Source: Acidobacteriota bacterium (GTDB taxonomy: Bacteria > Acidobacteriota > UBA6911 > RPQK01 > JAJDTT01). From it: 64,000 bases of DNA. Shown in pieces: positions 29,680-60,121 of this stretch. Positions within the stretch are counted from its first letter, which is position 1. The number at the start of each line of letters is the position of its first letter. Made by a program: the position numbers and the translations under genes. The DNA is taken from contig CBDCJH010000002.1 of assembly GCA_965217775.1 (NCBI GenBank), forward strand, positions 4,352,001 through 4,416,000, in the 5' to 3' direction. The notes beneath the pieces are model-generated. The model made no database searches. It saw only the letters and a program-made list of their open reading frames with translations, and was not told where the DNA came from.

Positions 29680-29746
29680 CGTGGCTTTCGTCGTCAGAAA
29701 TTAGAAATTGTTCCCTGAGAAGGGGACAGTCACGTTCTCGCCCCGT

Positions 29747-31747
29747 TCAGGACACCCCCGCGCCCAGCAGGAAATCGATCTCATCACTCAGCTTCCGGGT
29801 CAGGTCCACCTCTGAATCGAACCCCACATGGCGGTACTGAATCCGGCCCTCCCGGCCGATGAGTACGATCGTCGGTATCGCGGACACTCCGAAATCATCG
29901 TCGACCTTGCCATCTCTGGCGACCGGAAAATCGTATTCGTTCTTCTTCATGAACCTGCGGACCACGTCCTCATCCTCGTCCACGCTGACGGCGAGAAAAA
30001 CGACTTCAGGCCGGTCCGACCACCGATCGACCGTCGCCTGGAACTGGGGCAGTTCCTCGACACACGGTCCGCACCACGTCGCCCAGAAATCGAGGACCAC
30101 GACCTTTCCCTTGAGATCCGCCGATCTGACGCTTTCGCCTCCCAGAGTCTCCAGATTGAATTCCGGTGCCTCGCCCGAGGAAAGCCCGCGCGCCCGCAGT
30201 ATTGCCTCGTCCAGACTGAGCGCGGTTGGAGCGCCAACAGCCACGCTCCCTTCGGTCTTGGCCTGAGTCACGTGGTCCAGGACATACTGGTTCAGACCGT
30301 CAATCGAACCGTGCACCTTTGCGAACAGGGATTCCAGGGGTTCCCGCGCAGGATCGTGCAGATAGTCAATCAGGGAACTCGCGTAGTGCTTCAGTGCCTC
30401 CTGGTGCTGCCCGGTGACTTCGTACGCGGCGGCAAGTTCAAGATGGATCAGGTCCCCCGCTCGATCCCACACGCCTACCACGGGCAGAAGCACGGCGATT
30501 GCCTCCTGGTGTCTCCGATTCTTGTTGAGCACCTTGCCCAACTCGTAGGAAACCCCGGTTCGCACTTGTCCCCCCACTTCTTCCAACAGCTCACGGCTCG
30601 GCTCACTGCTGGTGAATAGAACGGTCCCGTGGACACTGTCCGGGTTCGCAAAAACGAGGGCTCGTTCAAGGAACCGGATGGCACGCTCCGTCTGCCCCTC
30701 CTTCGCGTAGCGGACTGCGACTTGCGTATATGCCATCGGATTCGGATATCCCGATTCCAGGAGTTCCTGCACAAGTTCCTCTTCCTTCCGAACCTCTCCG
30801 GACTTCCAATAGAGATCGAACAACGCTTGGTAGGCATAATTCTTGAGCCTCTTGTCATCCGGGATTTCTTCTTTCTCCAGGCACTCCCGGGCGAGGGCTT
30901 CCGTCTTCTCCGGATCCGTTTCCACATAGTGTTTCAAGAGGTAATCGTAGACGTGCACAATATTGGGACCCGTGGGGTAATCTTCGATGAAGCGATTCCA
31001 GAGCCGGACCTTCTGGTCCTGGTCCTCCAGGGATTCCGCCATCTCGTACAGGGCAAGGCCCCCATTGCGGGGGTCGGATCTGAACCGCTCATAGATTTGC
31101 TGCAAGAGACTTGCGGCGTCGGTGTCCCGCTCAGCCTTCTCGTAGGCGCGCATGAGACCCCAATAACCGCGGGCGACGTCCGGCAACTCTGAGATCATCT
31201 TCCGATAGGCGGCAATTTCGTCCTCCCGCCGGCCCATGCGTCCGAAAGTTCGCGCCAGTCCCCGATGGCCCAGTTCACTCGTGGGCTCAAGGGCAAGGAC
31301 CCTCTGGTAGTTGGTCAATGCCTCGTCGAAGGACCGGCGGTCTTCCAGCAACTCACCCAGACCCAGGTAGCCCCAGGGGGAGCCGGGATCCAACACGATC
31401 GCCTTCTCGTAATGGGCCTGCTTCGCGTCGCCCGCGGCGACTTCGCCGAGCAGGTAGTGGAAGACGACACTGTCCGGATTCTCCTGGACGCGCCATTCGT
31501 ACTCTTGGCGCAGCAGTTCCTTGTCTTCCGTGAGGCGGATGATCTCGCGGTGCGCTTCGGTGAACTCCGGGTCGTGTTCGATTGCTTGCCTGCAAAGCTC
31601 CAAAATTCGATCGGCATCATCGCCCCGATCGAGAGACCTGGCCTCCCGATAGAGCCTGCGGGCCGTTTCCGGATCGGGAGCGGTAGGACCCGTGCAGGAT
31701 GAGCCGATGACAAGAAGAGAGCAGCAGAGAATCTGGATCAGTCTCAT
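29747..31747 (-). CDS. TPR lipoprotein with C-terminal TlpA-like redoxin domain
   Basis: Lipobox-like IGSSC; TPR helices; DFWATWCGPC, IPT. Confidence 0.88.
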   Translation of the reverse strand: MRLIQILCCSLLVIGSSCTGPTAPDPETARRLYREARSLDRGDDADRILELCRQAIEHDPEFTEAHREIIRLTEDKELLRQEYEWRVQENPDSVVFHYLLGEVAAGDAKQAHYEKAIVLDPGSPWGYLGLGELLEDRRSFDEALTNYQRVLALEPTSELGHRGLARTFGRMGRREDEIAAYRKMISELPDVARGYWGLMRAYEKAERDTDAASLLQQIYERFRSDPRNGGLALYEMAESLEDQDQKVRLWNRFIEDYPTGPNIVHVYDYLLKHYVETDPEKTEALARECLEKEEIPDDKRLKNYAYQALFDLYWKSGEVRKEEELVQELLESGYPNPMAYTQVAVRYAKEGQTERAIRFLERALVFANPDSVHGTVLFTSSEPSRELLEEVGGQVRTGVSYELGKVLNKNRRHQEAIAVLLPVVGVWDRAGDLIHLELAAAYEVTGQHQEALKHYASSLIDYLHDPAREPLESLFAKVHGSIDGLNQYVLDHVTQAKTEGSVAVGAPTALSLDEAILRARGLSSGEAPEFNLETLGGESVRSADLKGKVVVLDFWATWCGPCVEELPQFQATVDRWSDRPEVVFLAVSVDEDEDVVRRFMKKNEYDFPVARDGKVDDDFGVSAIPTIVLIGREGRIQYRHVGFDSEVDLTRKLSDEIDFLLGAGVS

Positions 31748-31972
31748 GGCAGACCTCCGTAGGCAGCCTGTTGCGCCAGTCCGGGGCAGGTGGGAACTGG
31801 CAAATAAGACGAATATGTCCAAGATAGCACCATGGAAGTGGGGGCGTAACCGGCCGGAGGACTGGAATTTCCCCATTTAATGGGGAGTCAGAGAACGATC
31901 AGATCTTGGTTGGAACGGGAATCGGTTCCAGTGAGAGAACCCAGTGACAGGCACAAAGACAGGACAAGCGTC

Positions 31973-32037
31973 AGGAGCGGGGGTTGTTAACCCCCGATTC
32001 AGGGGGGTGTAGCGGGGACTGGAAATCCCCCCTCCTG
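31973..32037. repeat. REP-like hairpin pair
   Basis: Matches 27791 unit plus GGGGACTGGAAATCCCCCCTCC. Confidence 0.75.
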
Positions 32038-32179
32038 TTCCGGCCCCTGGCCACCGAATAGAGAATTTAACTGTCCCCTATTTGTTCTGTTCCCCATTTC
32101 TTGACACTGGAACGCTTCGTGGCGAAGCTTCAACGCGCGGAGTAAAAAAGGTGACTGTCCTCTTCTCCTCCCTTGCCAA

Positions 32180-32638
32180 TCACAGAATGGTGTTCAAGTC
32201 GTCAAGAAGTACAATCCGGTCATCCAGCTCCTGGACTTGTTCGGCAAGACGTTTGGCTCTTGAAATCAGATCTTGTGCTGCCTTCCTGTCTCCTTGCAGC
32301 GCCTTCGCGCGTGCGCTCGCCTTGTAGCCATAGCCGACAAAGTAGGGAGGCAGATCGTTGGTCTCACCGACCTCGACACATCGCTGGGCGAAATATTCCG
32401 CGCGCTCCGGGAGTCCCGCCACGGCGTAGACGCGAGCCAGTTGCCAGCTCCCAATTGAGATGTTCAACGGTGTGTGATCCTCAACCTGATTCCAAGGCCA
32501 GAAGGAAGCATGGGAGACGTGAATCATCTCTTCAGCTTCCTTGGCGGTGAGCTCCGGTTTACGCAGATACTCCCACGTCTGGTTGAAGCAGGAAGCGGCC
32601 AATCTGCGGTGAGTCAGATTGTCTGATTGATTGTTCAT
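32180..32638 (-). CDS. Conserved hypothetical alpha-helical protein
   Basis: ATG 32638 with GGAG RBS; HRRLAASCFNQTW...WQLARVYA...ARA pattern. Confidence 0.65.
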   Translation of the reverse strand: MNNQSDNLTHRRLAASCFNQTWEYLRKPELTAKEAEEMIHVSHASFWPWNQVEDHTPLNISIGSWQLARVYAVAGLPERAEYFAQRCVEVGETNDLPPYFVGYGYKASARAKALQGDRKAAQDLISRAKRLAEQVQELDDRIVLLDDLNTIL

Positions 32639-32812
32639 GTCGTCTCCAATGCATGGGTGCAAGAACGTGTCTGTCCCCCTTCTCCTGCAGTGAAGATCGT
32701 GAATCTGACGCCACGACATTTGCTGGGTGAAACAATCATGCATCGTTGGATCTTTCCCACGTTCATTATCTCGGTCCGGTCACGGCAGCCAGGGGTGGCA
32801 GGTCGCGCTTGA

Positions 32813-32861
32813 GAATAAGCCGGAATAAACCGGAATAAGCCGGAATAAGCCGGAATAAGCC
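32813..32861. repeat. 10-bp tandem repeat (GAATAAGCCG) x about 5
   Basis: Directly visible. Confidence 0.85.
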
Positions 32862-32872
32862 AACCCACAGTT

Positions 32873-33709
32873 TTACAAGCGATTCCAGCGCGCTCCCCGA
32901 CCATGGCCCGTAGGTGTGATCAAACCTCGAGCCTTTAGAGTGGCGAGGTCTTCACGCAGTCGCCGCTTGTTGATTTGCGGTCCCAACTCGGCGAGGATCT
33001 CGCGCAGTGCCATGGCGCGATCCGCCTGATCGATTAGCGCAAGGATCTCCCGTTGCCGCTCGGTCAAAAGGGTCACCTTGACACGATCCGTTTGCGAGAG
33101 GGAAGCGGACCGTCACGCACCCTCCAGCGTTCTCGATCTCGGGAAGTGGCAGACCGGCAGAGGTCGTCAGCTCCGCCATCTTGAGAGTCCCGCGTCCCCA
33201 CTCCTCAATGATGCCTCACCGATAGAACGTACGGGCGATCAGTGGGTTCCACGGCAAGGATTCGTGCGGTGCGAACAGCTTTTCCGGGGTCAACCCGAAA
33301 TGCAAGGTGCCGGACGACGTCACCTCCAGGCGGTCATCAAGGCCAAGGTGGTGTTCCCAACCCGACGATACGCTATGCCTCGGTAAACGTACGGCCTTGC
33401 AGACCCGCGGCTTACGCGCACCACGACCACCTCACGGTCCCCCGCTATGGGAACCCGCTCGATCTCTGGAAAGGACGGCGGATCGATCCTTTGGATCTCG
33501 CCGCTCACGCCCTCAATCGTCCGGTCGCTCACTTGCTGTCCAGCCATGTCTCCATTGGGTGTGACACCGAACAGCACATACCCACCGCGTTGGTTGAGCA
33601 TGGCGCATACGGTTCGGGCTGCCTCACGGCGCTCTCCCGTCGTGCTCTTGAACTCCAGAGTCTGTGACTCGTGGGTGGAGACCAGCGCCGCAAGTCGCTC
33701 AGACGTCAT
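32873..33709 (-). pseudogene. AlbA_2/Schlafen + HATPase + wHTH (RecG-like regulator), deleted and frameshifted
   Basis: ESQTLEFK, CAMLNQRGG..LFGV; GLPLPEI; terminal wHTH GHGRGARW, in three frames. Confidence 0.8.
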
Positions 33710-34150
33710 CGGGCTTCCTCGACCACACGCATGGGATTATGGCGTATATCCACAAAATGGCTCTCATCTGCAACCATTCGTTCAGTGCGTCGAAGACCTT
33801 TTTGGAAGTGATCGAGTTCCTGCTCATTCCCTGATACGCACGTGAGTTTCATATACCCAAGTCTGCACCGACGATGTGTCAGCCGGGTAAATCCGTCTCG
33901 GGGCGCTCGAAGGCGCCAACTCCGAGCACAGGAAGCAGCGACAGCATTTCGGCCAGATAGCCGTCCATCACAGCTCGATCCGGGTCCGCCAACATGGGGC
34001 GTTGCGGATTTCTGAATCACCAATGGACGCGGATCGGTCATGTCCCCCGCCAAGGATGCGCGCCGGAAGATCCTCCGCCATCCGGTCAACCGCGACGATT
34101 CCTACCAGGAGCACTGCAGCACTCAAGAGATCCCGACTCGGCTTCCCACC

Positions 34151-34339
34151 CTATGACAAATTATTTTCCTTGCGTCGGCTCGCCAAACGCCGCAGAACCG
34201 GGTCCGTATATCGGTGCGCATGAAGCCAGTGATCAAGCTCGTCATGGGTCTTCCCCACGATCTCCGCGCTGACGCGATCCCGAATCTCCCGCATGGTCTT
34301 TACGCCATCGAATCCCCTCTTTTTCATTTTCTCAATCAT
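34151..34339 (-). CDS. Small protein, likely partner of a PIN toxin
   Basis: FDGVKTMREIRDRVSAEI; start overlaps the stop of a PIN remnant. Confidence 0.6.
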   Translation of the reverse strand: MIEKMKKRGFDGVKTMREIRDRVSAEIVGKTHDELDHWLHAHRYTDPVLRRLASRRKENNLS

Positions 34340-34412
34340 CGCATATCTCCCTCGGCGTCCGGATCTCGACTCCTGCCACCGTGGCAACGGCGATATGCAG
34401 GCCGTCGGCCAA
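34332..34412 (-). pseudogene. PIN toxin C-terminal remnant
   Basis: LADGLHIAVATVAGVEIRTPREICDD*. Confidence 0.55.
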
Positions 34413-34451
34413 CCCTCGTGAGCTGAGCGTAAGCAAAGCGAGAATTGCGGT

Positions 34452-35688
34452 CTAGCGATTCCAACGACGCTTGAGGTAGAGGGGCACAAGCGCCAACAAC
34501 ACGGCAACGCTCAGATGAATCCATGGTTCGATTTTCCTACTGTTGCCGCTATTCCTCACAATCAGCATGCGAACTTGACGTCTCGCTTGGACTAGCTCCA
34601 GGCCCAGGGTGCTCTTGATGGCATGAGCAATCGAAGAATGATCTTCAGGATCGAACTGTAGCTTGATGCGATAAGAACCATAGAGTCTTGTCTCATCGAG
34701 CACCGGCCGATCCAGCCTTGATGCGACCACGTGCGCAAGACTCTCGACGCTGGAGGCCTCGAGTTCTCCTCTGGACGCACGGGAGTAACTCCCCTGGACC
34801 GCCGGTAGAGGCTCGAGCTTCGTCTCAGGCGATTTCCGCAATACGTAAGCGTCCACCATCCGGTTTTCCCAGACCGCTTCGATTCCCAGGGCGGCCGAGA
34901 CGGCCTGTTGCATCATGGGTGCCAAGAGATCCTGTCTGCCAGCCGTGTTGATCACGACATCGTACTTCTGTTTGGGCAACTCGGCCTCGATCAAGAATTG
35001 GCCTGGTCGAGCATTGAATGCGACTGGGAGAATATGTTCCGGAAGAAAGGAAATGATTTTGATCTCGCTGTGGCTGCGGCTCATTCCGCTACGATCACTC
35101 GTGGACGGGCGGATGAGTACTTGAAAAACCGGTTCCGGCCCGTCATCTCCCACCGCGAGGAGGGTGCCCGTGGACTTCTCCGGGACATCGGGCCGCCGCC
35201 CGGCCAAAAGATCGAGCAGAACCGTCTTGGTCACGTGATGGGGTTGTGTGACCGCTTGGATGACACCCTCCTTGTCGACCAGCACGGTGGCCGGAATGCC
35301 CATCACGGCATAGTCCCGGAATACGGATCGATCAAGATCGAGCCCAACCCAACCGGCGATGGGTTGAGAATCCAAGAAGGGTTCAATGATGCTCTCTTCC
35401 TCGTCCGATATGGAGAGGAACCGAACCGGCTGATCCGAGAATTCCTCCGCTAGTTCGTTGAAGTGGGGAATGGCTCCGATAACACGGCCCGCACCAAGTG
35501 GCCCAGAACTCCAGGACCAGCGCCTGACCCTTGAGGGCTTTCCAGCTCAAATCATTGTCGACCGGACCCTTCAGCATCGTATCGATGGCGAGTTCTGGAG
35601 CTCGGTCGCCGATCTTCGGTGGCGCACCGAGCACCAAGGCCGCAGTCATCATTATGTTGGCGAGCGTCCCGATCGAGATTCTTGGCAT
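34452..35688 (-). pseudogene. TlpA redoxin + TIGR03435/DUF3738-like protein, frameshifted near 35481
   Basis: FWATWCGPC then one extra base before IGAIPHFNEL; C-terminal RPVLDETRLYGSY...LGLEL. Confidence 0.75.
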
Positions 35689-35794
35689 CGTACGGCCTCC
35701 GCTAGTTCGTCGAATTCCATAGTGTCAGGCAAAGCGAGAATGTGACTATCACCTTTTCCTGCTCCGTCCCCTTCTCCTGCCCTCTCGCCTGGCT

Positions 35795-37477
35795 TCAGTC
35801 GGCTTCGTTGCGGGGGGACAACACCAGTGCTTCGTAGGTCGTGGGTTCGGAAACTCGCTCCATGGTCACGCCGAAGTTCTCGCGCAAGTATTTGAGCGCC
35901 ACCTCCCAGCCATCGGAGAAATCGACGGAAATGTCCACCCTGTGGTGGAAGGGATTGGCCGCCGCCGCACCCTCCCATTTCATTTCGACTTCGTCGAGAA
36001 GCTCGTTGTAGCCCTTCGCTAGATCGTTGAGTGCCGCATTTGTGAGCATGGTTCGTATCGCGTTAAAAAGCGGGAGCCCTGTGCCGTGAAGGTTTTTCCC
36101 ATTGGTGCTAGATGATTCTTCCCGCGCAGCGCTGATCGGAAAATCGGTTCCGTCCTGGGTAAATATCCAGCGGGTCCTGGTTCCCTGCCGCTCCTTCAAA
36201 TCGGTGACAAAACCGAAGCGCTGGCCAAGCCGCTTCACCCGCTTCAAGGGGTCCACAGTGATTCGGAGGGCAATTCGCGCCGAGTAGCGCCGTTTAGACA
36301 ACACCGAATCTGAAGTCTCCACCGGCATGTCTCCGAGAGTCTGTGCGATCTCGATCAACGGCGTACGGTGAAATTCGTACCGCACGATCCCGCCGCTCGC
36401 ATTCGACGACATACTTTGAACTCCCTTTGTCGGGTCATTCCAAGGGGGATGAACCACGATTTCCATCCCCTCCAGCGGCATGTAAAAGACACGGTTGTGC
36501 CAACGCCCAAATGGAGCCGACGCTCTGGCGAACGGGTCTGCTCTCAACACATCCTTGGGAGCCGGCTGGACGGCATCATCGGCCACCTCAAAGAACTCGT
36601 CAGCAAGCGGTACATTGTAGTTCCGATATCTCAATTCGTTGACTAGCTCCCATTCCTGCTGGCCCCCGTCCAAATAAACGCGGGAGTGGTTGGGCAATCG
36701 CGTCTGCGCGTCGACTTCGATTTCAAATCGGATGTCCGACGGTGTCTTCCTGCCCAACGAGGAGCTTCGCCAGATTGAAAAAAGAACTGTCTGTCTCCGT
36801 TCCTCCCGATCGATCTGATACGACAACCCCTCAAGTTGCTCGCGCCCGGGCAGGACCAGATTCTTGCTGACCTTATCCACGGACCAAGCGCCTGGCCAGG
36901 GGAGGTTCTTCCGGTACCAGGCACCCTCAATGTTCATGTACACGGACTTGTCATCGGACAGAACCACCTGCCGGGCGGGGCCGGTACCGACCTCGGCGCG
37001 GAAATAGTGAGGGGCCTGGAACCAGTGCTTCACCGGCACCCGCTCTCCCCTTTCCCCGCGGAACCAGCCCTCCGTGCGCACCGAAGAGAGTTTGCGCACT
37101 TCCTCGACCACCTGCGCCCACGCCAGCGTGGATGTTCCGCGCCAAAGTACGCCGAGAAACAGGCCGGCCAGTGCGATAGCAAGCGCCGACATCCAGGCCG
37201 GTCGCGGCAACGCCAGCCAAAATCCCGACTGTCGCGGCTGCTCATGCTCCGAGCGAATTGCCTTCAGGGTGCTGGCACGGGCCGCAGCCAGGAGTTGGGC
37301 GGGTGGCTCCGACGCGCTGATGTCGGCACTCAGTTCCAGGATCGTGCGTGCTGCCTCGACGTCGCCGGCCGTTTCGGGGTGAGCAGCCAGATAGTCATCG
37401 AATTCCCGCGCGACCGCATTCGGCAACTCGCCCCGCACGTAGTCGGTCAATCTTCTCTCAAAATCGATTCTGTCCAT
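35795..37477 (-). CDS. Putative anti-sigma factor with TM helix and LolA-like periplasmic region
   Basis: LTDYVRGEL N-terminus, TM, LAWAQVVE; directly downstream of ECF sigma. Confidence 0.65.
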   Translation of the reverse strand: MDRIDFERRLTDYVRGELPNAVAREFDDYLAAHPETAGDVEAARTILELSADISASEPPAQLLAAARASTLKAIRSEHEQPRQSGFWLALPRPAWMSALAIALAGLFLGVLWRGTSTLAWAQVVEEVRKLSSVRTEGWFRGERGERVPVKHWFQAPHYFRAEVGTGPARQVVLSDDKSVYMNIEGAWYRKNLPWPGAWSVDKVSKNLVLPGREQLEGLSYQIDREERRQTVLFSIWRSSSLGRKTPSDIRFEIEVDAQTRLPNHSRVYLDGGQQEWELVNELRYRNYNVPLADEFFEVADDAVQPAPKDVLRADPFARASAPFGRWHNRVFYMPLEGMEIVVHPPWNDPTKGVQSMSSNASGGIVRYEFHRTPLIEIAQTLGDMPVETSDSVLSKRRYSARIALRITVDPLKRVKRLGQRFGFVTDLKERQGTRTRWIFTQDGTDFPISAAREESSSTNGKNLHGTGLPLFNAIRTMLTNAALNDLAKGYNELLDEVEMKWEGAAAANPFHHRVDISVDFSDGWEVALKYLRENFGVTMERVSEPTTYEALVLSPRNEAD

Positions 37478-37490
37478 TGCTCTTGTCCTT

Positions 37491-37991
37491 TCAGCCCGTG
37501 CCCATCGAAGCCCGGATTTTCTTCAGTGCCTTGTACTCGCTGGACCTTGCCGAACCCGCGCTGCACCCCAGTTGCGCGGCAATTTCGGCGTAGGTCCATC
37601 CCTCAAAGTTGCGCAGAGCAAAGACGGTGCGCTGGCGCTCGGGCAAATCGGCTGCCAAGTCGCGTACCCGGTCCATGAGCAAGCGACGCTCTACGTCCAT
37701 GTCGACGTTGGCTTCCACCGCGGAATGCTCTTCAATGCCAACCGTCACTCGTTGCCGGCGCCGTGCGTTGAAGGCGACGTTCGTCGCCACTCGACAGAGC
37801 CAAGCCTTGGGATAGGCGATCACCTCGCCGCGTGTGCAAGCGGCATGGAAGCGGAGAAAGGTCTCCTGGAAGATCTCCTGAGCCTGGTCGGCGTTAGGGA
37901 CAATCTTGTAGGCGACCTTGAGGACTAGCCGTCCATAATCGTCTATGGCCTTGGCGCTGATGTCGGCCGATCTCTTTGCGAATACCTTCAT
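37491..37991 (-). CDS. ECF RNA polymerase sigma factor
   Basis: AQEIFQETF, AWLCRVATN, LPERQRTVFAL, YAEIA. Confidence 0.9.
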   Translation of the reverse strand: MKVFAKRSADISAKAIDDYGRLVLKVAYKIVPNADQAQEIFQETFLRFHAACTRGEVIAYPKAWLCRVATNVAFNARRRQRVTVGIEEHSAVEANVDMDVERRLLMDRVRDLAADLPERQRTVFALRNFEGWTYAEIAAQLGCSAGSARSSEYKALKKIRASMGTG

Positions 37992-38243
37992 TTCGTTTGG
38001 CCGCCGGGAGTACATCGAACCGGATCGTGCTCGCCAGCGTCTTCTCCCTATATGACCCGCGAACCGCAATTTTGTGAACCCACAAAATCCTTCTGGACCG
38101 CAAAGCATGGTTTGTCGGAGAGAGATGAACGTGACTGCCCCCTATTCCTGGGCGCGGATGGACCTACTTGGAGCACCCGGCGTGGAGGCGCGCGACAAGT
38201 AGTAGGGATTACAGACTGGGCACTGATAGGTTACACTTTACAA

Positions 38244-38522: not shown

Positions 38523-38536
38523 AGGAGAACCATGAC

Positions 38537-51809: not shown

Positions 51810-53282
51810 TCAGGCAATCAGCTCGTGCACGACGTTTCCGTAGACGTCTGTCAAACGAAAATCCCGGCTGTTGTGGCGGAAGGTGAGCCGTTCATGATCC
51901 AGGCCCAGCAGGTGAAGAATCGTGGCGTGGAGATCGTGATGCGAGACGCGGTCCTTGATGGCGTGCATGCCAAGATCGTCGGTGGCGCCGTGGGTGATCC
52001 CCGGCTTGACGCCGCCGCCCGCCATCCACATGGAGAAGCCGTAGTGGTGATGGCCGCGGCCGAGGGATTCCTCCGTACGAGCCTCCTCCATCGGAGTGCG
52101 GCCGAACTCGGTGGCCCAAACGACGAGCGTCTCGTCCAGCAGCCCGCGTGACTTCAGGTCCATGATGAGGGCCGTGACGCCTTGATCGGTGCGCGCCGCG
52201 TTTGTGCGGTGGTTGTCGATGAGCCCGCCGCGATTTCCGTGCGCGTCCCATCGCCGCCCGTGGGCGCCGTCGAGAATCTCCACGAAACGGACCCCGCTCT
52301 CCACCAGCCGTCTCGCCGTCAGGCACTTCCTCCCGAATTCGGTGTCGCCGTAGAGCGCCTTCACCGACTTCGGTTCGTTTCGGATATCGAAGAGTTGCGG
52401 CGCTTCCATCTGCATGCGAAACGCCGTCTCGAATGCGGCGATACGCGCGTCGAGCTCGGGCTGAGTGGCGTGCATGCCGCGGTGGAGGCGATTCAACTTC
52501 CGCACCAGATCCAACTGCTTGCTCTGCTGGCCTCGGGTGAGAAATTTCGGCGCCGTGATGTGCGGCACGGGCGGTGTCCCGGCCTTGACGTCCGCCAACG
52601 TGGCCTGGTGGATTCCCGGGAGGAATCCGGCATCGTAAAGCGCACGCCCGCCGGACGGAAGGCCGTCCTTCATCACCACGAATCCCGGCATGTTCCGATT
52701 CTCTGTCCCCAGCCCGTAGGTTACCCAGGAGCCAAGACTAGGGTGGCCCTGTATGGAATAACCCGTGTGCATGAGGATCTGGCCGGTGGAGTGAATCGCC
52801 GAATCGGTGTGCATCGAGTTGATGAACGCGATTTCGTCGACCACTTTCGTCAGGTTCGGGAAGATCTCGCTGACCCAGGCGCCGCTCTGGCCGTAGCGCT
52901 TGAAGGAGAACACCGGCGGAACGATACGCGTGTTGGTGTAGTCCTTCTCCGGGTTCAGGCCTTCCAGGTCTTCCTTGGAGAAGATCTCTCGCGCCAATTT
53001 TCCGGCGTATTTGTTCAGAAGCGGCTTGTGGTCGAAGGTCTCAAGCTGGCTTGCGCCGCCGACCATGAACAGCAAGATGACGTTCTTCGCCTTGGGAGCG
53101 AAGTGTGGCTGTCTGGGTGCGAGTGGCTCGCTGAGGTCGGCCGCGGGTACGGCCGGCGCACCGATTGCCGTCTCGTCCGTGAGCAGGCTGGCCAGAGCGA
53201 TGCCGCCCAGGCCGAGTTCCTTGAGGAACCCACGGCGATCCCAACCGACCGGTGGAGTTCCGTAGTTTGCGTCAGTCAACAT
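51810..53282 (-). CDS. DUF1501 protein (paralog)
   Basis: DRRGFL Tat signal, GGASQLETFDHKP, ATEFGRTP, GATDD. Confidence 0.92.
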   Translation of the reverse strand: MLTDANYGTPPVGWDRRGFLKELGLGGIALASLLTDETAIGAPAVPAADLSEPLAPRQPHFAPKAKNVILLFMVGGASQLETFDHKPLLNKYAGKLAREIFSKEDLEGLNPEKDYTNTRIVPPVFSFKRYGQSGAWVSEIFPNLTKVVDEIAFINSMHTDSAIHSTGQILMHTGYSIQGHPSLGSWVTYGLGTENRNMPGFVVMKDGLPSGGRALYDAGFLPGIHQATLADVKAGTPPVPHITAPKFLTRGQQSKQLDLVRKLNRLHRGMHATQPELDARIAAFETAFRMQMEAPQLFDIRNEPKSVKALYGDTEFGRKCLTARRLVESGVRFVEILDGAHGRRWDAHGNRGGLIDNHRTNAARTDQGVTALIMDLKSRGLLDETLVVWATEFGRTPMEEARTEESLGRGHHHYGFSMWMAGGGVKPGITHGATDDLGMHAIKDRVSHHDLHATILHLLGLDHERLTFRHNSRDFRLTDVYGNVVHELIA

Positions 53283-53326
53283 GGGTGAACCCGCTCAGGC
53301 TCGTGAGGGTGTAACGGTATTGTACA
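53272..53326 (-). pseudogene. Degenerate 3' end of a PSD1 gene
   Basis: Aligns to 56766-56820; ends next to the junction motif at 53338. Confidence 0.55.
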
Positions 53327-53416
53327 GGAGAGGGGAGGTGGCTGTCCCACTCTCAGTCCCCTTCTCACACGGAAGACGGCGACAAGAAAGTCGCCGGTCC
53401 CAGTCGGCGGCAAGAA

Positions 53417-54059
53417 GTCGCGGTAGGGACGCCGGTTGCCCAGCGCCCCCCGCGCAGATCCGTGCGTTCCCGTTAAGGCACACGGCTCCTACCTCAGGTA
53501 GTGACGGCCGGCCGCGACGCCCACCGTATCCGACCCCCGCCTGTGTCACGCCAACCCGGCTCTGAGTCCGGTCCGTACTTTGGTGAGCCGAAATTCCCTT
53601 TGGTTCCACCCCTTCGCTCCACGGACTCCGCAGAGAGTTCCCCCTCCTTGTTCGCCCGCTTCATCACTACTATGGATGAATCCGATTGCTTCCTCTCTCC
53701 CCTCGTGGGGTACGGGTTCCTCCTTTCCCACAAGGCCCCGGCTCTCGCCGGGGTGAGAGCAAGCCCTCCCAGGTCCCGACACCAGATGTACGTACGTGCA
53801 TGGGTTCTTTGACACCGCAGAGCCCGGCTGCCCCTCACCCTGGCGGTCCAGCCGGTGTTGCCTTCGACCGCGACTACAGCCTCGGCACTTCCGATCAGGG
53901 AGCTTTCGATGCTCAATAGCCTGCCCATACGCACCGCTACCGACGCTTCGCCGACACCCTCACGGGTGCCCACGCTCGGCTCGCGGAGAAACGTGGATGG
54001 TTAGTCCTTCGTTTCAGCGGACTTTCACCGCCTATCTTGTGCCAGTTAGCCTGGCGCAC
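53417..54059 (-). ncRNA. ORF-less group II intron, copy 1 (643 bp)
   Basis: 5' GTGCG; domain V GAGCCGTGTGCCTTAACGGGAACGCACGGATC; domain VI ending CCCTACCGCGAC; no RT ORF. Confidence 0.92.
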
Positions 54060-54191
54060 AGTCGCCCCTCCTGGCAAGAAAGTCGGCGCTCCCGTGCGAT
54101 GCCGCGCAGGGTCGTGAGGTTGTGGCAATGGTGTACAAGGCGCGGAGAGAGGGGGCGAGTGTCCCCTTCTCCAGATAAGTCTCAATGTGAA

Positions 54192-54479
54192 TCAGATCAG
54201 GTCGTCGACGTCGACGCTGAGCGCCTCGGCGAGCGCGGCCAAGGTTCGAGCCGAGCCGGTGCGGACGCCCCTCTCGATTTGCGACAGATAGAGTGGATTG
54301 ATCCCAGCGGCACCGGCGAGCTGCTTCTGGGTCATGCCGCGATGGTCCCGGTATACCCTGACGGCGTTCTCTCCCGCCAGAAGGCGATCCGCTAACTTGA
54401 TTGGAAAAGACTTTCCCCCCACGGACTTGGCGTGATCGTAAAGCTCTTCGTCGGTTAGGCCTGCGGTGGCATCCAACAT
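54192..54479 (-). CDS. XRE HTH antitoxin-like protein, probably 5'-truncated
   Basis: GENAVRVYRDHRGMTQKQLA...YLSQIERG; junction motifs at 54157 and 54508. Confidence 0.75.
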   Translation of the reverse strand: MLDATAGLTDEELYDHAKSVGGKSFPIKLADRLLAGENAVRVYRDHRGMTQKQLAGAAGINPLYLSQIERGVRTGSARTLAALAEALSVDVDDLI

Positions 54480-54622
54480 CGTTAAGCGAGTGTACCCCTG
54501 AAAGATAGTGACTGTCCCCTTCTCGCCCTTCTCGCGCGCGCGTGTCCCCTACTCGCACGCTTCTCACTTCTCACGCGGAAGACGGCGACAAGAAAGTCGC
54601 CGGTCCCAGTCGGCGGCAAGAA

Positions 54623-55265
54623 GTCGCGGTAGGGACGCCGGTTGCCCAGCGCCCCCCGCGCAGATCCGTGCGTTCCCGTTAAGGCACACGGCTCCTACCT
54701 CAGGTAGTGACGGCCGGCCGCGACGCCCGCCGTATCCGACCCCCGCCTGTGTCACGCCAACCCGGCTCTGAGTCCGGTCCGTACTTTGGTGAGCCGAAAT
54801 TCCCTTTGGTTCCACCCCTTCGCTCCACGGACTCCGCAGAGAGTTCCCCCTCCTTGTTCGCCCGCTTCATCACTACTATGGATGAATCCGATTGCTTCCT
54901 CTCTCCCCTCGTGGGGTACGGGTTCCTCCTTTCCCACAAGGCCCCGGCTCTCGCCGGGGTGAGAGCAAGCCCTCCCAGGTCCCGACACCAGATGTACGTA
55001 CGTGCATGGGTTCTTTGACACCGCAGAGCCCGGCTGCCCCTCACCCTGGCGGTCCAGCCGGTGTTGCCTTCGACCGCGACTACAGCCTCGGCACTTCCGA
55101 TCAGGGAGCTTTCGATGCTCAATAGCCTGCCCATACGCACCGCTGCCGACGCTTCGCCGACACCCTCACGGGTGCCCACGCACGGCTCGCGGAGAAACGT
55201 GGATGGTTAGTCCTTCGTTTCAGCGGACTTTCACCGCCTATCTTGTGCCAGTTAGCCTGGCGCAC
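54623..55265 (-). ncRNA. ORF-less group II intron, copy 2 (643 bp)
   Basis: Near-identical to copy 1 (about three substitutions by eye). Confidence 0.92.
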
Positions 55266-55294
55266 AGTCGCCGCTCCCAGCGGGCGGCACCTGA

Positions 55295-56776
55295 TCAGGC
55301 GATGATGTCGTGGACGACGTTGCCGTAGACGTCGGTCAGGCGGAAGTCGCGGCTGTTGTGGCGGTAGGTGAGCCGTTCGTGATCCAGGCCCAGGAGGTGG
55401 AGGATGGTGGCGTGGAGATCGTGATGCGAGACGCGGTTCTTGATGGCGTGCATGCCGAGTTCGTCGGTGGCGCCATAGGTGATCCCCCGCTTGACGCCGC
55501 CGCCCGCCATCCACATGGTGAAGCCGTAATGGTGATGGCTGCGGCCAAGGGTTGTTTTGGTCAGTGACCTGTCCGCCTCCTCAAACGGCGTGCGGCCGAA
55601 CTCGGTGGCCCAGACGACGAGAGTCTCGTCCAGCAGGCCGCGTGACTTCAGGTCGATGATGAGCGCGGTGATGCCCTGATCGGTGCGCGCCGCGTTGGTG
55701 CGGTGGTTCTTGATGAGCCCGCCGCGGTTGCCGTGGGCGTCCCATTGCCGCCCGTGGGCGCCGTCGAGAATCTCCACGAAACGGACTCCGCTCTCCACCA
55801 TCCGTCTCGCCATCAGGCACTTCCTTCCGAAGTCGGTGTCGCCGTAGAGCGCCTTCACCGAGTCCGACTCGTTCCGGAAATCGAAGAGCCCCGGCGCTTC
55901 CATCTGCATGCGAAACGCCGTTTCGAAGGCAGCGATGCGGGCGTCGAGCTCGGGCTGCGTTGGATGTATCCCGCGGTGGAGGCGATTCAACTTCCGCAAC
56001 AGATTCAACTGCTGGCGATGCTGCCCCGGGTTCAGAAACGACGGCGCCTTGATGTGCGGCACCGGCGGATTTCCGGGCGTGACGTCCGCCAGCGTGGCCT
56101 GGTGGTAACCGGGGAGGAATCCGGAATCGTAAAGCGCGCGCCCACCGTCCGACCGTCCGTCCGTCATCACCACGAATCCCGGCATGTTCCGGTTTTCCGT
56201 CCCCAGCCCGTAGGTCACCCAGGAACCAAGACTGGGGTGGCCCTGCCTGGAATAGCCCGTGTGCATGAGGATCTGACCGGGGCCGTGAATCGGCACATCG
56301 GCATACATCGATTTGATGAATGTGATGTCGTCGACCACCTTCGTCAGGTGCGGGAAGATCTCGCTGACCCAAGCGCCGCTCTGGCCATAGCGCTCGAAAG
56401 AGAACACCGGCGGCACGATTTTCGAGCTGTAGAACGTCTTTGACGGATTCAGGCCGTCCAGATCCTCTTTAGGGAAGATGTCCTTGGCCTCTTTTCCGCC
56501 GTACTTTTTCAGAAGCGGCTTGTGATCGAACGTCTCAATCTGGCTTGCGCCACCGACCATGAACAGGAAGATGACGTTCCTCGCCTTGGGAGTGAAGTGA
56601 GGCTGCCGGGGCGCAAGTGGATCGCTGAGATCAACCGCCGGCACGGCCCCTGCGCCGCTCGCCTTCGGGTCCGCGACCAGGCTGGCCAGCGCGATGCTGC
56701 CCAGGCCGAGTTCCTTGAGAAACCCACGGCGGTCCGGTCCAACCGGTCCCGCTCCGTAGGCTGCGTCAGTGGACAT
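55295..56776 (-). CDS. DUF1501 protein
   Basis: Same motifs; overlaps upstream PSD1 gene. Confidence 0.92.
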   Translation of the reverse strand: MSTDAAYGAGPVGPDRRGFLKELGLGSIALASLVADPKASGAGAVPAVDLSDPLAPRQPHFTPKARNVIFLFMVGGASQIETFDHKPLLKKYGGKEAKDIFPKEDLDGLNPSKTFYSSKIVPPVFSFERYGQSGAWVSEIFPHLTKVVDDITFIKSMYADVPIHGPGQILMHTGYSRQGHPSLGSWVTYGLGTENRNMPGFVVMTDGRSDGGRALYDSGFLPGYHQATLADVTPGNPPVPHIKAPSFLNPGQHRQQLNLLRKLNRLHRGIHPTQPELDARIAAFETAFRMQMEAPGLFDFRNESDSVKALYGDTDFGRKCLMARRMVESGVRFVEILDGAHGRQWDAHGNRGGLIKNHRTNAARTDQGITALIIDLKSRGLLDETLVVWATEFGRTPFEEADRSLTKTTLGRSHHHYGFTMWMAGGGVKRGITYGATDELGMHAIKNRVSHHDLHATILHLLGLDHERLTYRHNSRDFRLTDVYGNVVHDIIA

Positions 56777-58967
56777 AGATGAACTCGTTCAGGTTCATGA
56801 GCGAATGGCAGTATTGCACCAATGGGCCTGGAGCATCCGAGGACCCGGTCTCCCCGCTTTCCTCCAACGCACCGGCGCGCCGTTGACCGAGAAACGACAG
56901 GCCGATCTCGCGTTCTTCCGCAGTCGGCGGCCGGGAAAGAGCGATCCCGTAGGCCGTCTCGACCTGCCGGCCGGGATCGTCTCCGACCCTTTCCCGCACC
57001 CGTTGTGCGAAGCGCTCAGCCTGCTCCCACACGAATGGCGCATTCAGCATGAAGGCCGTGCCGCTCGGGGTCGTGCTGACGTCACGAAGGCCGATGCTCT
57101 GGGTGTTGTCGGGCGGGTCGAAGATCTTCAGCACCGGATGGAGGTTCAACCGCGGAGCCATGAGGTAGACGGACCGGCGCCAGGTGTCCGGCGTGTCCTG
57201 GAACGGGTTCTTGCGGTTGCCGATGGGAATGCTGGGCCCGTACAGGCCGGGGCGCAGAGCTCCGGAGACGCTCAACATGTGATCGCGGATGATTTCAGAC
57301 TCCATGCGCACGGGCCGGCGGTGCCACAGGTACTCGTTGTAGGCATCCTGCCGGGCCTGAGCCAATTTGGTGCCAGCCGCCTGTTTGTAAGCTGCGCTGT
57401 TCATGATCAGCCGGTGGATCGGTTTCAGTCGCCAGCTTTCCCGGATGAGCTGGGACGCGAGCCAATCCAGCAGATCGGGATGCGTGGGCTCGGTGCCGAG
57501 TTTGCCGAAATCATTCGGGGTGCTGACGATGCCGCGCCCGAAATGATGCTGCCAGAGACGATTGACGATCACCCGGGCCAGCAACCCGCCGGCGCCATGC
57601 TCCACGTCGGTGAGCCAGTTGGCAAGCATCCGAAGCTTCGGCGCTTCAAGCTGCGCCTCGGGGCCAGCGGCGGCCTCGGGACGGGGCCGCCAATCCTCCG
57701 CGCTGCGCCCGTCCCCCATCAAGACGCGCAGGAACCCCGGCTCGACCGGCTTGACGGGGCTCTCCCAACTGCCAGCGGCCAGTAGATGGGGGGTGGTCAC
57801 CGCGAGGGCGACGAACTTGCCCCCTGCATCCGGTTCTTCCTCAGCTTCGTCGAAGAATACGGCCGTCAACTGGTAGTACTCTTCGGCCGTGATCGGGTCG
57901 ATCTTGTGGTCGTGGCACCGCGCACACCCGACCGTCATGGCAAGGAACGCTTGACCGGTCGCCGACACCATGTCGTCGAGGCGGTGAAACTTGCGTTCGT
58001 TGGGATTTTCGGTCGTGCCCAGGTTGGTTCCCATCTGAACGAACATGCCCAGGTCGCGAAGTGCGGCGGGGAAACCCTTCGGAGCCCCGGCAATCTGGCA
58101 GCGGACGAACTCATCGTAAGGAAGGTCGTCATTGAAAGCGCGAATCACGGCGTCGCGGTATCGATACGCGTCCTCTCGAATTGCGTTGTCCCCCTCATGG
58201 GCTCCTTTGCTCTCGCCAAAGCGAGCCACATCCAACCAGTGCCGTCCCCACCGTTCCCCGTAGTGCGGGTTGGCGAGCAGCCGGTCGACGAGTTCGTGAA
58301 AGGGATCCGCAGAGGAATCTCGAACGAACGCCTGGACTTCTTCGGGGGCGGGCGCGAGACCGATCAGGTCGAAGTAGGCGCGGCGAATCAGGGTGGGCCG
58401 ATCGGCCTCCTGCGCCGGGCGAAACTGCATCTCGTGCAGCTTGGCGAGGAGGAAACGATCGATGGGCGAGTCTGTCCACGCGGCCTCGTCCGAACTTGCC
58501 GCCGAGATCTGAGGCGGGTCGACAGCACGCAGGGGGTGGAAGGCCCAGTGCCGGCGTCCTGACTCGAGATCCGTTTTCCCGGGTTCAGCGGCCTGCGCAT
58601 CCCTCGGATACGGCGCGCCGAGGGTCACCCATTGGACGAAATCAGCGATGACCGAGTCAGACAGTTTGCCGCCGGGCGGCATTGCCAAGCTGCGATCGGT
58701 GTGCTTGAGGGCCTCGATCAGAATGGACTGGTCGGGTCGGCCCGGCACGACGGCGGGGCCCCGCGACCCGCCTTGCTCGACACCCTCCCGCGTGTCGAGC
58801 TGCAGTTTCCCAAACAGCATTCCCGCGCGGTCGGCCTCCGCCGAATGACACTGATAGCAGCGCTCCGACAGAACCGGACGGATCTTCTTTTCGAAGAAGT
58901 TGATACGGTTCTGCCTGGGTTCCTCGGGGGCTCCGAGCAGGCTGAGGGCAATTACGATAAGGATCAC
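56766..58967 (-). CDS. PSCyt/DUF1549/DUF1553 protein
   Basis: [39 protein letters not shown]. Confidence 0.92.
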   Translation of the reverse strand: MILIVIALSLLGAPEEPRQNRINFFEKKIRPVLSERCYQCHSAEADRAGMLFGKLQLDTREGVEQGGSRGPAVVPGRPDQSILIEALKHTDRSLAMPPGGKLSDSVIADFVQWVTLGAPYPRDAQAAEPGKTDLESGRRHWAFHPLRAVDPPQISAASSDEAAWTDSPIDRFLLAKLHEMQFRPAQEADRPTLIRRAYFDLIGLAPAPEEVQAFVRDSSADPFHELVDRLLANPHYGERWGRHWLDVARFGESKGAHEGDNAIREDAYRYRDAVIRAFNDDLPYDEFVRCQIAGAPKGFPAALRDLGMFVQMGTNLGTTENPNERKFHRLDDMVSATGQAFLAMTVGCARCHDHKIDPITAEEYYQLTAVFFDEAEEEPDAGGKFVALAVTTPHLLAAGSWESPVKPVEPGFLRVLMGDGRSAEDWRPRPEAAAGPEAQLEAPKLRMLANWLTDVEHGAGGLLARVIVNRLWQHHFGRGIVSTPNDFGKLGTEPTHPDLLDWLASQLIRESWRLKPIHRLIMNSAAYKQAAGTKLAQARQDAYNEYLWHRRPVRMESEIIRDHMLSVSGALRPGLYGPSIPIGNRKNPFQDTPDTWRRSVYLMAPRLNLHPVLKIFDPPDNTQSIGLRDVSTTPSGTAFMLNAPFVWEQAERFAQRVRERVGDDPGRQVETAYGIALSRPPTAEEREIGLSFLGQRRAGALEESGETGSSDAPGPLVQYCHSLMNLNEFIYVH

Positions 58968-59052
58968 GCGACTACCTTACACTTGTAATCGGGATTTTAT
59001 GTTGGATTGCAGAAGGAATTCCACCAGGCGAACGGACGCGTGCCCTGGAACC

Positions 59053-59925
59053 TCAGTACGTCCCGATCCCCAGCACATCCTTCTCCCAGGGCGTCAGTCG
59101 TTTGATCTGTTCGGGAGAAAGGGCGCGAACCTCCGTGTACTCGGGGATGGTCTCCTCGAGGCCGAGCAGCTTCCGCATTTCCGGGAGGAGGCGATCCTGC
59201 ACACCCTGTGGAATGACGCGGGCGTTGTCGATCATCCCCTTGACCCACCATCGCTGGAAAAAGGCCAGTATGGAATGCTGGACGTCGTCGCTGCGGTTGA
59301 TGCCGCTGGCGTGCCAAAGCGCCGCATCCCAAACGATGGCCGTACCCGCGGGAACGACCGCTTGGTGGGATCCCGGGGAGTCGGCATCCGGGTCGGGGAT
59401 CTCACAGGACTTGTGAGTGCCGGGCCAAACCAGGGTAGCTCCGTTCTCGGCGGTGAAATCCACAACCGCCCAGGCGACGTTGATCGCCATCGGGTAGTGC
59501 TTGCCGCCCTCGAAGGGCACGATGCTGAATGGAGACCGGTCGGCGTGAATCTGGAATCCGCGCCCGGGTTCTCTGCCCTCGCTGGGTCGAATCGAACGCG
59601 CCGTTGCGTCGTACAGGACCATGTCCCCACCCAGGTATTCACGGCACACGGAGAGGACCGGCGGGTTCAGGTAGAAGGTCTCGAAGCAAGGATGCTTGCC
59701 CACGATGCAGTGGGCGGACCAGCAGTGCTCGGACGAAGTTCCCAGGCGCAGAGCGATCTCGCTCTCCCGTTGGTAGATGTCTTCCGCCGCTTGGATGGCT
59801 GGAGCCAGAAACTCGGCGTCGAGAGCGTCCGGGATGATCGTGTAACCCTGCTCCCCAAGTTCTCCAACGTGGAACTCCAGTTCTGACGGCGTTAGCTCTC
59901 TACCGCTCGAGAAGCTGCTCTTCAT
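59053..59925 (-). CDS. Phytanoyl-CoA dioxygenase-family Fe/2OG enzyme
   Basis: HAD, DFTAENGAT, PGTH, WHASG. Confidence 0.9.
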   Translation of the reverse strand: MKSSFSSGRELTPSELEFHVGELGEQGYTIIPDALDAEFLAPAIQAAEDIYQRESEIALRLGTSSEHCWSAHCIVGKHPCFETFYLNPPVLSVCREYLGGDMVLYDATARSIRPSEGREPGRGFQIHADRSPFSIVPFEGGKHYPMAINVAWAVVDFTAENGATLVWPGTHKSCEIPDPDADSPGSHQAVVPAGTAIVWDAALWHASGINRSDDVQHSILAFFQRWWVKGMIDNARVIPQGVQDRLLPEMRKLLGLEETIPEYTEVRALSPEQIKRLTPWEKDVLGIGTY

Positions 59926-60121
59926 GAATCATGCCCTACAAATGCCGTTTTGGAAACGCCAATGCCAAGCGGTGCCTGCGTTAGTCAAACAGCCTACTAC
60001 ACGATTTGCTTCGCGAAAACACTTGGAGAAGGTGACTGTACCCTTCGCCTGCGGCAGAATTTGGTGCAGATGTGCAATCAGCCAAATGGATTATCCTCCA
60101 CGAAACAGTAACGATACCCCA

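Follow-up and report, generated by a model that had tools for sequence, protein, structure and literature searches.

The 64-kb stretch of Acidobacteriota DNA presented above, which we call the window (C2:4352001-4416000, on one of the two contigs, C1 and C2, of the genome analyzed, G000), harbors an island between 29717 and 60048 in which an oriented motif of about 25 nt lies at the borders of gene-sized modules, gene fragments and non-coding segments. Copies of this motif form co-oriented arrays across the genome, flank a multicopy gene for a 311-aa protein of the Y1 transposase family, change in sequence with the clade of that gene, and sit at breakpoints where related genomes differ in module order, with left neighbors that are kept and right neighbors that change. 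With a probability that we put at roughly 60%, such islands are the product of transposase-driven cutting and rejoining at the motif by the Y1 enzyme acting in trans; the motif, whose position beside the Y1 gene is observed directly, would then serve a multicopy, RAYT-like Y1/HUH transposase as its cognate end or recognition site.

Motif copies and symmetry in the window

Using GTGACTGTCCCCT as a query with at most 2 mismatches, we obtained 20 matches in the window, whereas 100 dinucleotide-preserving shuffles averaged 1.69 and never exceeded 6, and the motif is confirmed as a genuine feature of this DNA. Nineteen matches fall between 29721 and 60044, in agreement with the approximately 19 copies reported in an earlier note made from the letters alone; the orientation bias described there also holds, although we count 16 of 19 on the plus strand, with three on the minus strand (29721, 33104 and 44238), instead of 17. 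The twentieth match, with 2 mismatches at 8442, is no better than expected by chance. We consider 18 copies in the window credible, those at 32067, 33104, 53338 and 54155 being weak, while matches at 35742 and 38244 and one found only with the position weight matrix (PWM) at 36787 are doubtful. The copies are as follows, bare coordinates here and below being those of the window.

29717..42422: island part 1, eleven motif copies with PWM scores of 15.0-23.2
29717-29742, minus strand: motif copy, left end of the island
32058-32083, 32142-32167, 32658-32683, 38122-38147 and 38886-38911, plus strand: motif copies (window scans)
33100-33125, minus strand: motif copy (weak)
39324-39349, 41830-41855, 41939-41964 and 42397-42422, plus strand: motif copies (window scans)
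43277..60048: island part 2, seven motif copies with PWM scores of 15.1-27.9
43277-43302, 47059-47084, 54499-54524 and 60023-60048, plus strand: motif copies
44234-44259, minus strand: motif copy facing the 43277 copy across a DUF1501 fragment
53329-53354 and 54146-54171, plus strand: motif copies (weak)

A logo built from 121 genomic copies with at most 1 mismatch is conserved only from -8 to +16, about 25 nt that read GAGAGAAsGTGACTGTCCCCTTCTC, and it upholds the extended consensus proposed previously; because conservation stops outside these positions, the motif is not the tip of a longer conserved element. The better conserved part is the right half, CTGTCCCCTTCTC. The previous description of the motif as mostly non-palindromic is wrong for the major variant, since in its consensus, GAGAAGGTGAC-T-GTCCCCTTCTC, a central T separates the arms GAGAAGGTGAC and GAGAAGGGGAC of an imperfect 11-1-11 palindrome. 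The predicted folding energies of the motif strands are -7.7 and -9.8 kcal/mol, with z-scores of -2.6 and -3.9.

A palindromic sequence that can fold on both strands, and many copies of which lie just past gene ends (for example, 29721 and 32151), could be a regulatory or RNA signal such as a dimeric repressor site, a terminator or an mRNA-stabilizing hairpin, its position at borders being secondary. We regard this explanation as highly improbable: motif orientation follows the array and not the gene strand, such that genes on the plus strand (39630-41762) and on the minus strand (32180-32743 and 43261-43917) are all bounded by plus-strand copies, some copies lie inside truncated reading frames, no T run follows the stem, and the link to the Y1 gene and to breakpoints would be left unexplained. 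A reading of the motif as a promoter, ribosome-binding site and start codon (GGAG-N8-GTG/ATG ACT GTC...) was rejected as well, as position 2 of the "start codon" varies (GCG, GAG, GGG, GTA) and motif orientation is independent of gene strand.

Co-oriented arrays across the genome

The earlier note had named an even genome-wide spread as the outcome that would speak against its proposal, and a PWM scan of the genome shows that the copies are instead clustered. After de-duplication, there were 159 copies with scores of at least 18 and 182 with scores of at least 17, and 138 of the 182 were grouped in 23 clusters; the cluster span, taken from the clustering before de-duplication, is approximately 2.9% of the genome. 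A reversed-matrix control gave about 8 matches at scores of at least 18, versus 237 raw matches with the real matrix. Neighboring copies within clusters have the same orientation in 99 of 115 pairs, while the genome as a whole is balanced (92 plus, 90 minus), and the spacing between copies is irregular, with 5th-95th percentiles of 55-5558 nt. The window's own array runs on past the window edge to C2:4432424. Polarity linked to replication, as for Chi- or KOPS-like sequences, was considered and rejected, given that plus and minus arrays alternate along the chromosome with no two-arm pattern.

A multicopy Y1 transposase gene flanked by the motif

A search with the Y1_Tnp family led to a 311-aa gene at C2:2626206-2627138, with two reverse motif-like copies upstream and two forward ones downstream. 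The genome harbors 11 full-length copies of this gene (83-100% identity), all 11 with an opposite-oriented motif 121-302 nt upstream and 8 with a same-oriented motif 181-316 nt downstream, so that a candidate for the motif-flanked recombinase gene that the earlier note had proposed to look for does exist in this genome. Similarity among the copies begins and ends at the flanking motifs, which delimits a unit of about 1.45 kb. We also considered the motif as an insertion target of this unit and rejected the idea, since both unit ends carry the full core and not half-sites. Two further genes of the Y1_Tnp family, at C2:5635604-5635789 and C2:4665981-4666208 (in frames of 240 and 225 aa), have no adjoining array-type motif.

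The protein scores 37.3 bits against Pfam Y1_Tnp (cut-off 23) and 50.7 bits against the NCBIfam equivalog REP_Tyr_transpos, below the cut-off of 80. H63 and H65 of the HUH motif and the tyrosine Y162, in the motif YVELNA, are invariant in 51 aligned relatives. The structure model predicted from this 51-sequence alignment has a mean predicted local distance difference test score (pLDDT) of 83, whereas a version based on 11 sequences had a mean pLDDT of 50 and was unusable. In a fold search with the model, the top Protein Data Bank (PDB) match was 4er8_A, the Escherichia coli RAYT with a hairpin of a repetitive extragenic palindromic (REP) element (E = 5e-7, target-normalized TM-score 0.65), followed by the IS200, IS608 and ISDra2 transposases. 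Sequence searches of the PDB with the single protein and with a profile gave no transposase match; only the fold search found one. One source labels homologues of the protein "REP element-mobilizing transposase RayT". The protein is about twice as long as a RAYT, with a 130-aa C-terminal extension. The trans-acting Y1/HUH enzyme suggested previously thus has a concrete candidate, a multicopy gene that is flanked by motifs and whose product, judging by its modeled fold, is probably RAYT-like.

Enzyme and motif across related genomes

A 17-mer of the motif is multicopy in all nine genomes of the genus (16-84 copies, the genome analyzed included) and in G023 (57 copies), a member of another family, among 41 related genomes; the others have 0-2 copies. 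Among 76 genomes of the order, only the same 10 contain at least 4 exact copies of a 15-mer. In these tallies the unpublished genome G016 is counted among those lacking the motif. Y1 homologues with at least 73% identity were found in exactly the motif-bearing genomes of the 41 searched, with 3-11 matches per genus genome. At Y1 loci of at least 75% identity in the other genomes, the upstream motif is present in 38 of 44 and the downstream motif in 24 of 44.

The Y1 protein of G023 is 79% identical to that of the genome analyzed, compared with 44-54% for the sister genus, and this closer similarity points to a transfer of the enzyme-motif pair between families. Both Y1 copies in G023 are followed 232 nt downstream by an exact array-type motif, and the arrays of this genome are tandem shuffles of two non-coding units and their truncated forms, each motif-ended. 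One such locus (L049, G023:C1:1487500-1490000) is a dense non-coding array with two alternating units of about 130-200 nt, some truncated, each ending in AAATGATGACTGTCCCCTTCTC.

More distant homologues are flanked by different inverted repeats, namely GGGACAGACTGTT (53% identity), GGGACACTGTTTATCTC (46%) and GGAAAGGGACAGAGTG (45%), such that the motif variant changes with the Y1 clade. The sister-genus variant GGGACAGACTGTT has 21-37 copies per genome there versus one in the genome analyzed, and forms islands of 50-100 kb around the Y1 gene of that genus:

G009:C4:1241047-1306417: GGGACAGACTGTT island, sister genus
G011:C2:465305-538093: GGGACAGACTGTT island, sister genus
G011:C3:1641433-1745235: GGGACAGACTGTT island, sister genus
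G012:C18:18371-69278: GGGACAGACTGTT island, sister genus

Rearrangement breakpoints at motif copies

Six complete genomes of the genus carry the island at the corresponding locus, with a different order of modules. Comparison at synteny breakpoints between strains had been suggested as a check. The span from 29.8 to 59.9 kb contains 97 synteny-block ends, 52 of which have a motif no more than 35 nt away, compared with 4.0% expected by position. We count about 12-13 distinct motif-associated places behind these ends, plus about 14 away from motifs. Those near motifs are:

32164-32173, 32657-32681, 33101, 38143-38152, 38901-38927, 39308-39321 and 41855: block ends, part 1
43275-43325, 44235-44236 (six of six relatives), 53348-53354, 54145-54157 and 54498-54524: block ends, part 2

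Module F, a small helix-turn-helix (HTH) gene module listed further below, precedes module D in G006, G005 and G002 and follows D or E in G000, G001, G003 and G004. An HTH cassette, found between DUF1501 genes in G000, G002, G005 and G006, comes directly after module B in G001 and G004. The copy at 32658 marks the junction of modules C and D in the genome analyzed and that of F and D in G006.

Similar joints appear in assembled contigs from four public runs (at most four studies) matched at 90% likeness: 32651>42403, 39284>32662, 38914>43277, 39309>44257, 29736>44233, 43296>32180 and 43302>39339, all of them at motifs. The joint 39284>32662 reproduces the G006 arrangement. Joints inside the DUF1501 fragment and in 44364-44882 were set aside as probable paralogue or repeat effects. 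All nine public runs consist of contigs, and neither their uncovered stretches nor their depth figures are counted as evidence. The contig-joint positions are:

29736, 32180, 32651/32662, 38914, 39339, 42403, 43277, 43296/43302, 44233 and 44257

Duplicated segments within the genome also end at motifs. For instance, the 1.84-kb segment 58181-60022, which looks like a donor and has a motif at its right end only, has a 95.7% identical copy at C2:4417734-4419572 with motifs at both ends. In a few donor/copy pairs, the sequence at the donor break resembles part of the motif. The claim that the motif lies at module borders is therefore supported by duplicated segments, synteny-block ends and contig joints alike.

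Polarity of the junctions

We compared the junctions at 286 oriented sites from the genome analyzed and six loci. In ungapped comparisons, the left flank alone was common in 33 pairs (14 groups) and the right flank alone in 6 pairs (5 groups). Where only the left flank is common, the variable positions of the motif are still more alike than background, which is reached at +17, directly 3' of TTCTC. With gaps allowed, 46 of the 101 left-only pairs showed homology up to at most 4 nt from the motif, whereas only 12 of the 83 right-only pairs showed it up to at most 5 nt away. The left segment is thus welded to the motif, and neighbors change just to its right, in a zone that is often filled with extra copies of the right half (GTCCCCTTCTC). 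This breakpoint polarity, with left flanks kept and breaks at the 3' edge, is consistent with the "one-ended" process that the earlier note had envisaged.

It also bears on the alternative in which a conservative tyrosine or serine recombinase uses the motif as its core site, with two arms around a 7-bp overlap (GACTGTC) and the Y1 gene as cargo, comparable to attC arrays or to the Xer/dif-like modules of Acinetobacter plasmids. The imperfect palindrome and the cassette-like arrays with toxin-antitoxin-like HTH genes would suit such a site, as would the junction at 32667, where the right arm follows the right neighbor and the left arm the left neighbor, as expected of a central crossover, and the genome is rich in tyrosine recombinases (28 matched stretches). 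However, most breaks lie at the 3' edge of the motif and not at its center, the motif variant changes with the Y1 clade, and the motif forms the ends of the Y1 units. No integron integrase was found in the genome, as none of the 28 stretches passes TIGR02249 (best 80.6 bits versus a cut-off of 265); all 23 arrays and the 4 kb on either side of them are free of intact tyrosine recombinases, and the sole serine recombinase (C2:2195904) is far from all of them. We therefore consider a conservative recombinase improbable.

The tyrosine recombinases include gene groups of two or three at C2:2807128-2809459, C2:1689251-1691318, C2:2397205-2399262 and C2:3540252-3542004, none near arrays, which we take to resemble "recombinase in trio" elements. 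The Y2 HUH transposase family PF04986, the type expected for IS91/ISCR elements, had no match in the genome analyzed, nor in 14 control genomes, which makes this a weak test.

Proposed mechanism

We propose that a Y1 enzyme encoded elsewhere acts on the arrays in trans, probably on a single-stranded substrate. One strand would be cut at the 3' edge of the motif (plus strand as written), which corresponds to the 5' edge of GAGAAGGGGACAGTCAC on the other strand; the predicted cut is at, or a few nucleotides beyond, the 3' edge of ...CCCCTTCTC. The cut end would then be rejoined elsewhere, at a second motif copy or at a site that is either unrelated or a look-alike, and repeated events of this kind could move, duplicate, delete and truncate segments composed of some sequence X plus the motif. 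Co-oriented arrays would result, by which variable islands are partitioned into modules that in some cases consist of gene pieces. According to the available text of PMC8266576, TnpA-REP cuts 5' or 3' of REPs and joins the cut end to oligonucleotides with little requirement for upstream sequence, a behavior that the proposed mechanism fits.

Several observations weigh against this account. As stated in the earlier note, the window encodes no recombinase: it has no candidate enzyme, the nearest Y1 copy is 477 kb away, and only 5 of the 23 arrays contain or abut one, for which reason action in trans must be assumed. In the genome analyzed, the motif variants at the Y1 ends have TAGAC or CAGAC (left) and GAGAC...CCCTTTCC (right), whereas the consensus of the arrays has GTGAC. 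Pairing of the arms as a hairpin is unsupported by covariation, since deviations in the left arm are not compensated in the right arm (18 compensated changes versus 16.7 expected by chance, for one arm pair). In the gapped junction comparison, left-only pairs (101, in 30 groups) and right-only pairs (83, in 27 groups) are similar in number. A 711-bp repeat in the window lies to the right of two motifs, and its second copy ends without a motif of its own. The contig joints represent the arrangements of other strains at 90% likeness and not intermediates, and the cross-genome association amounts to about three independent lineages, kin not being independent. Finally, both borders of module F are at different positions in different genomes, which does not match a simple unit of X plus motif.

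This last point would equally suit the view that the motif is a REP-like element merely copied by Y1 into variable islands, whose borders and shuffling result from deletion, slippage at palindromes, insertion sequence (IS) activity or short-repeat recombination. The islands indeed hold other mobile DNA (the DDE element at 45238-46698, TnpB elements and an approximately 160-nt repeat), no motif lies at about half of the distinct block ends, the partial look-alikes at some donor breakpoints would also fit microhomology-mediated events, and right-half copies (GTCCCCTTCTC) pile up behind many motifs. In contrast, passive insertion of a 25-nt element does not predict tight linkage of the motif to its left flank and loose linkage to its right flank; arrays as long as 25 kb keep a uniform orientation (99 of 115 neighboring pairs agree); and the same segment recurs before or behind different motif copies with 95-99% identity. 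On balance we find passive copying unlikely.

Cutting and rejoining by the Y1 enzyme could also extend to the capture of new genes, which a few cases suggest. A more ambitious version, which we rate as less likely than not, is an HUH-based analogue of the integron, in which a RAYT-like Y1 enzyme would use the 25-nt hairpin as a universal joint, shuffling existing modules and making new ones from chromosomal DNA by one-ended joining at look-alike sites; its products would be islands of toxin-antitoxin and defense-like genes, and the enzyme-motif pair would be transferable between families.

Comparison with known systems

The system had been presented as possibly undescribed, but in kind it is not, as both enzyme and motif belong to the world of REP/RAYT systems (REPtrons) and IS200-like elements. 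As in REPtrons, the candidate is a Y1/HUH enzyme, with the E. coli RAYT on its REP hairpin as the best match to the modeled fold, and its gene lies between inverted copies of a short imperfect palindrome that is high-copy elsewhere. It differs in that the Y1 gene is multicopy (11 copies here, 3-11 in relatives), unlike a single-copy domesticated gene, whereas the available text of 10.1101/119735 describes RAYTs as typically single-copy. Further differences are that the motif has no conserved GTAG or CGTC tag next to it, that the protein is below the equivalog cut-off (50.7 versus 80) and about twice as long, that 138 of 182 copies are grouped in 23 co-oriented arrays in contrast to the dispersed inverted doublets of REPs, and that copies bound gene-sized modules and gene fragments.

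With the IS200/IS605 family (IS200, IS608, ISDra2), the system shares the predicted Y1 transposase fold and multicopy units, of about 1.45 kb, in which similarity ends at structured motifs near both ends. The strand-specific, single-strand mechanism of this family would explain arrays of uniform orientation. Members of the family have structured subterminal ends and neither classical terminal inverted repeats nor target duplications. Here, one motif, in inverted orientation, makes up both ends of the Y1 unit, and the majority of motif copies stand alone, far from transposase genes and with unrelated modules between them; no target sequence and no distinction between left and right ends was definable for the Y1 unit.

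Class 3 TnpA-Y1 genes, as described by Quentin et al. 2018 (PMC6006769) in the available text, are rare, found principally in Planctomycetes, Acidobacteria and Proteobacteria, present as several closely related copies per genome, and intermediate between IS and REPtron; the same text notes Y1 genes of Acidobacteria and Planctomycetes that are multicopy and atypical in their flanking structures. The several related Y1 copies in one Acidobacteriota genome agree with this class, while YVELNA differs from the class 3 signature Y----Q, a comparison made by description only. A word search of the main text of PMC6006769 gave no occurrence of "cassette", "array" or "direct repeat", the supplementary table of structures lying outside this search.

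Integrons resemble the islands in having co-oriented arrays of a recombination-type repeat, each copy tied to a segment on one side, and module content that varies between relatives at a fixed locus, with toxin-antitoxin-like modules. Here, however, there is no IntI, the modules hold genes in both orientations as well as gene fragments and non-coding DNA, the arrays number 23 versus one platform, and the candidate enzyme is an HUH transposase. Integron attC sites are imperfect inverted repeats of 55-140 nt with R''/L'' and L'/R' boxes (GTTRRRY); the motif is only about 25 nt long, and neither a GTTRRRY nor an RYYYAAC box appears in its logo. Xer/dif-like modules have a 28-bp site (11-6-11) in alternating orientation, in contrast to direct arrays of a motif that is symmetric about a single base (11-1-11), and CRISPR arrays, with identical repeats at regular intervals and unique spacers of similar length, differ in that the spacing here has 5th-95th percentiles of 55-5558 nt and the spacers hold genes. 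The absence of IntI, the conserved length of about 25 nt and the irregular spacing bear out the previous statement that the motif is unlike attC, dif or CRISPR repeats. As with IS91/ISCR elements, which undergo one-ended rolling-circle transposition, there is one fixed and one variable end, and adjacent host DNA is picked up (58181-60022 to C2:4417734-4419572), but the fixed end is a 25-nt motif with no adjoining transposase gene.

In the literature on RAYTs, REPtrons, Y1 enzymes, cassettes and arrays, exclusive of supplements, we found no motif-bounded co-oriented arrays of modules, no between-species breakpoints at such a motif and no one-sided junction, and searches with motif strings returned only unrelated primers or antibody sequences. 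The cellular role of RAYT-type enzymes and the spread of REP-like elements are open questions, and the available text of PMC8266576 calls the dissemination mechanisms of REPs "poorly understood"; in the present case, the motif sits where module order differs and genes are cut. If our account is correct, such repeats would drive modular rearrangement and possibly gene capture and would not be passive passengers, and cassette-like islands would have a second origin, by a mechanism that has nothing to do with integrons. The system lends itself to experiment, since the putative substrate (25 nt), the protein (311 aa) and the predicted cut position are all defined.

Modules and cut genes in the window

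The modules between motif copies contain genes of either strand, fragments of genes and non-coding DNA:

29747..31876, minus strand: module B, TPR plus AhpC/thioredoxin-like gene (Pfam)
37491-38108, minus strand: ECF sigma factor (Pfam)
38230-38827: one motif-bounded module with an apparent higB-like toxin frame (by eye) and an HTH_3 antitoxin gene (38537-38827)
38912..39323, plus strand: module F, HTH_3 (Xre-type) gene 38988-39293 (Pfam)
39630-41762, plus strand: PhoD-like pair (Pfam)
directly after the copy at 42406 (which ends at 42422): P450 C-terminal tail, positions 410-455 of 462 (Pfam)
43303..44233, minus strand: module K, DUF1501 fragment, C-terminal half only (Pfam positions 198-390 of 390)
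45238-46698: DDE insertion sequence with DDE_Tnp_1_4 transposase (Pfam)
left of 47068: DUF1501 tail, read by eye only
47642-51586: E1-like DUF6791/ThiF gene and HTH/M78-peptidase pair (Pfam, PADLOC)
53361..55277, plus strand: 711-bp direct repeat (53361-54071 and 54567-55277), 99.3% identical
54172..54498, minus strand: HTH_3 cassette, gene 54192-54479 (Pfam)
58181..60022, plus strand: donor-like segment, 5' part of an intact PSD1/PSCyt gene and gene 59053-59925, motif (60023) at the right end only

Other genes found between copies with Pfam were YbjQ, two full DUF1501 genes and one PSD1/PSCyt gene. Module B is flanked in inverted orientation, by the copy at 29717 (minus) versus those at 32058 and 32142 (plus), and is found twice in both G005 and G001, with 81-87% identity to the window copy. 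For cut genes, the P450 tail at 42406 and the DUF1501 fragment with both ends at copies (43286 and 44238) were as described in the earlier note, whereas the "HigB remnant" that it placed at 38895 could not be confirmed. Module K is 88.5% identical to the intact DUF1501 gene at 55296-56213. The paralogue alignment for the DUF1501a region extends about 40 nt into a PSD1 3' end and stops near the copy at 53338. Both copies of the 711-bp repeat begin shortly after a motif copy and together they enclose the HTH cassette; in the loci of relatives, the repeat has no alignment except for about 55 nt at its start in G003.

In the region 47642-51586, the DUF6791/ThiF gene weakly matches the E1-E2 models of PADLOC and the adjoining HTH/M78 pair matches its capP and HTH models, and by these similarities the region looks like a defense-type ubiquitin-like module with a CapH/CapP-style regulator; PADLOC gave no match for 7 of the 10 island proteins examined. 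The insertion sequence at 45238-46698 has dozens of 95-97% identical copies in the genome analyzed and in G006, and copies in other genomes of the genus.

A 1.25-kb TnpB element (OrfB_IS605 / Cas12f-like TNB) is located inside array modules at C1:22575-23820, C2:1186796-1187986 and C2:1514826-1516016. TnpB elements were considered as a link to the arrays and rejected as independent insertions in a module, the one in C1 being absent from the 97% identical copy at C2:5279113-5284842. The window is also rich in families named after planctomycetes (PSD1, PSCyt1/2, DUF1501), though it is from an Acidobacteriota genome. Outside the island, a repeat of about 160 nt at 587-744 (C2:4352587-4352744) has very many copies with 95-100% identity on the chromosome and on C1; it resembles a miniature inverted-repeat transposable element in look and is unrelated to the motif.

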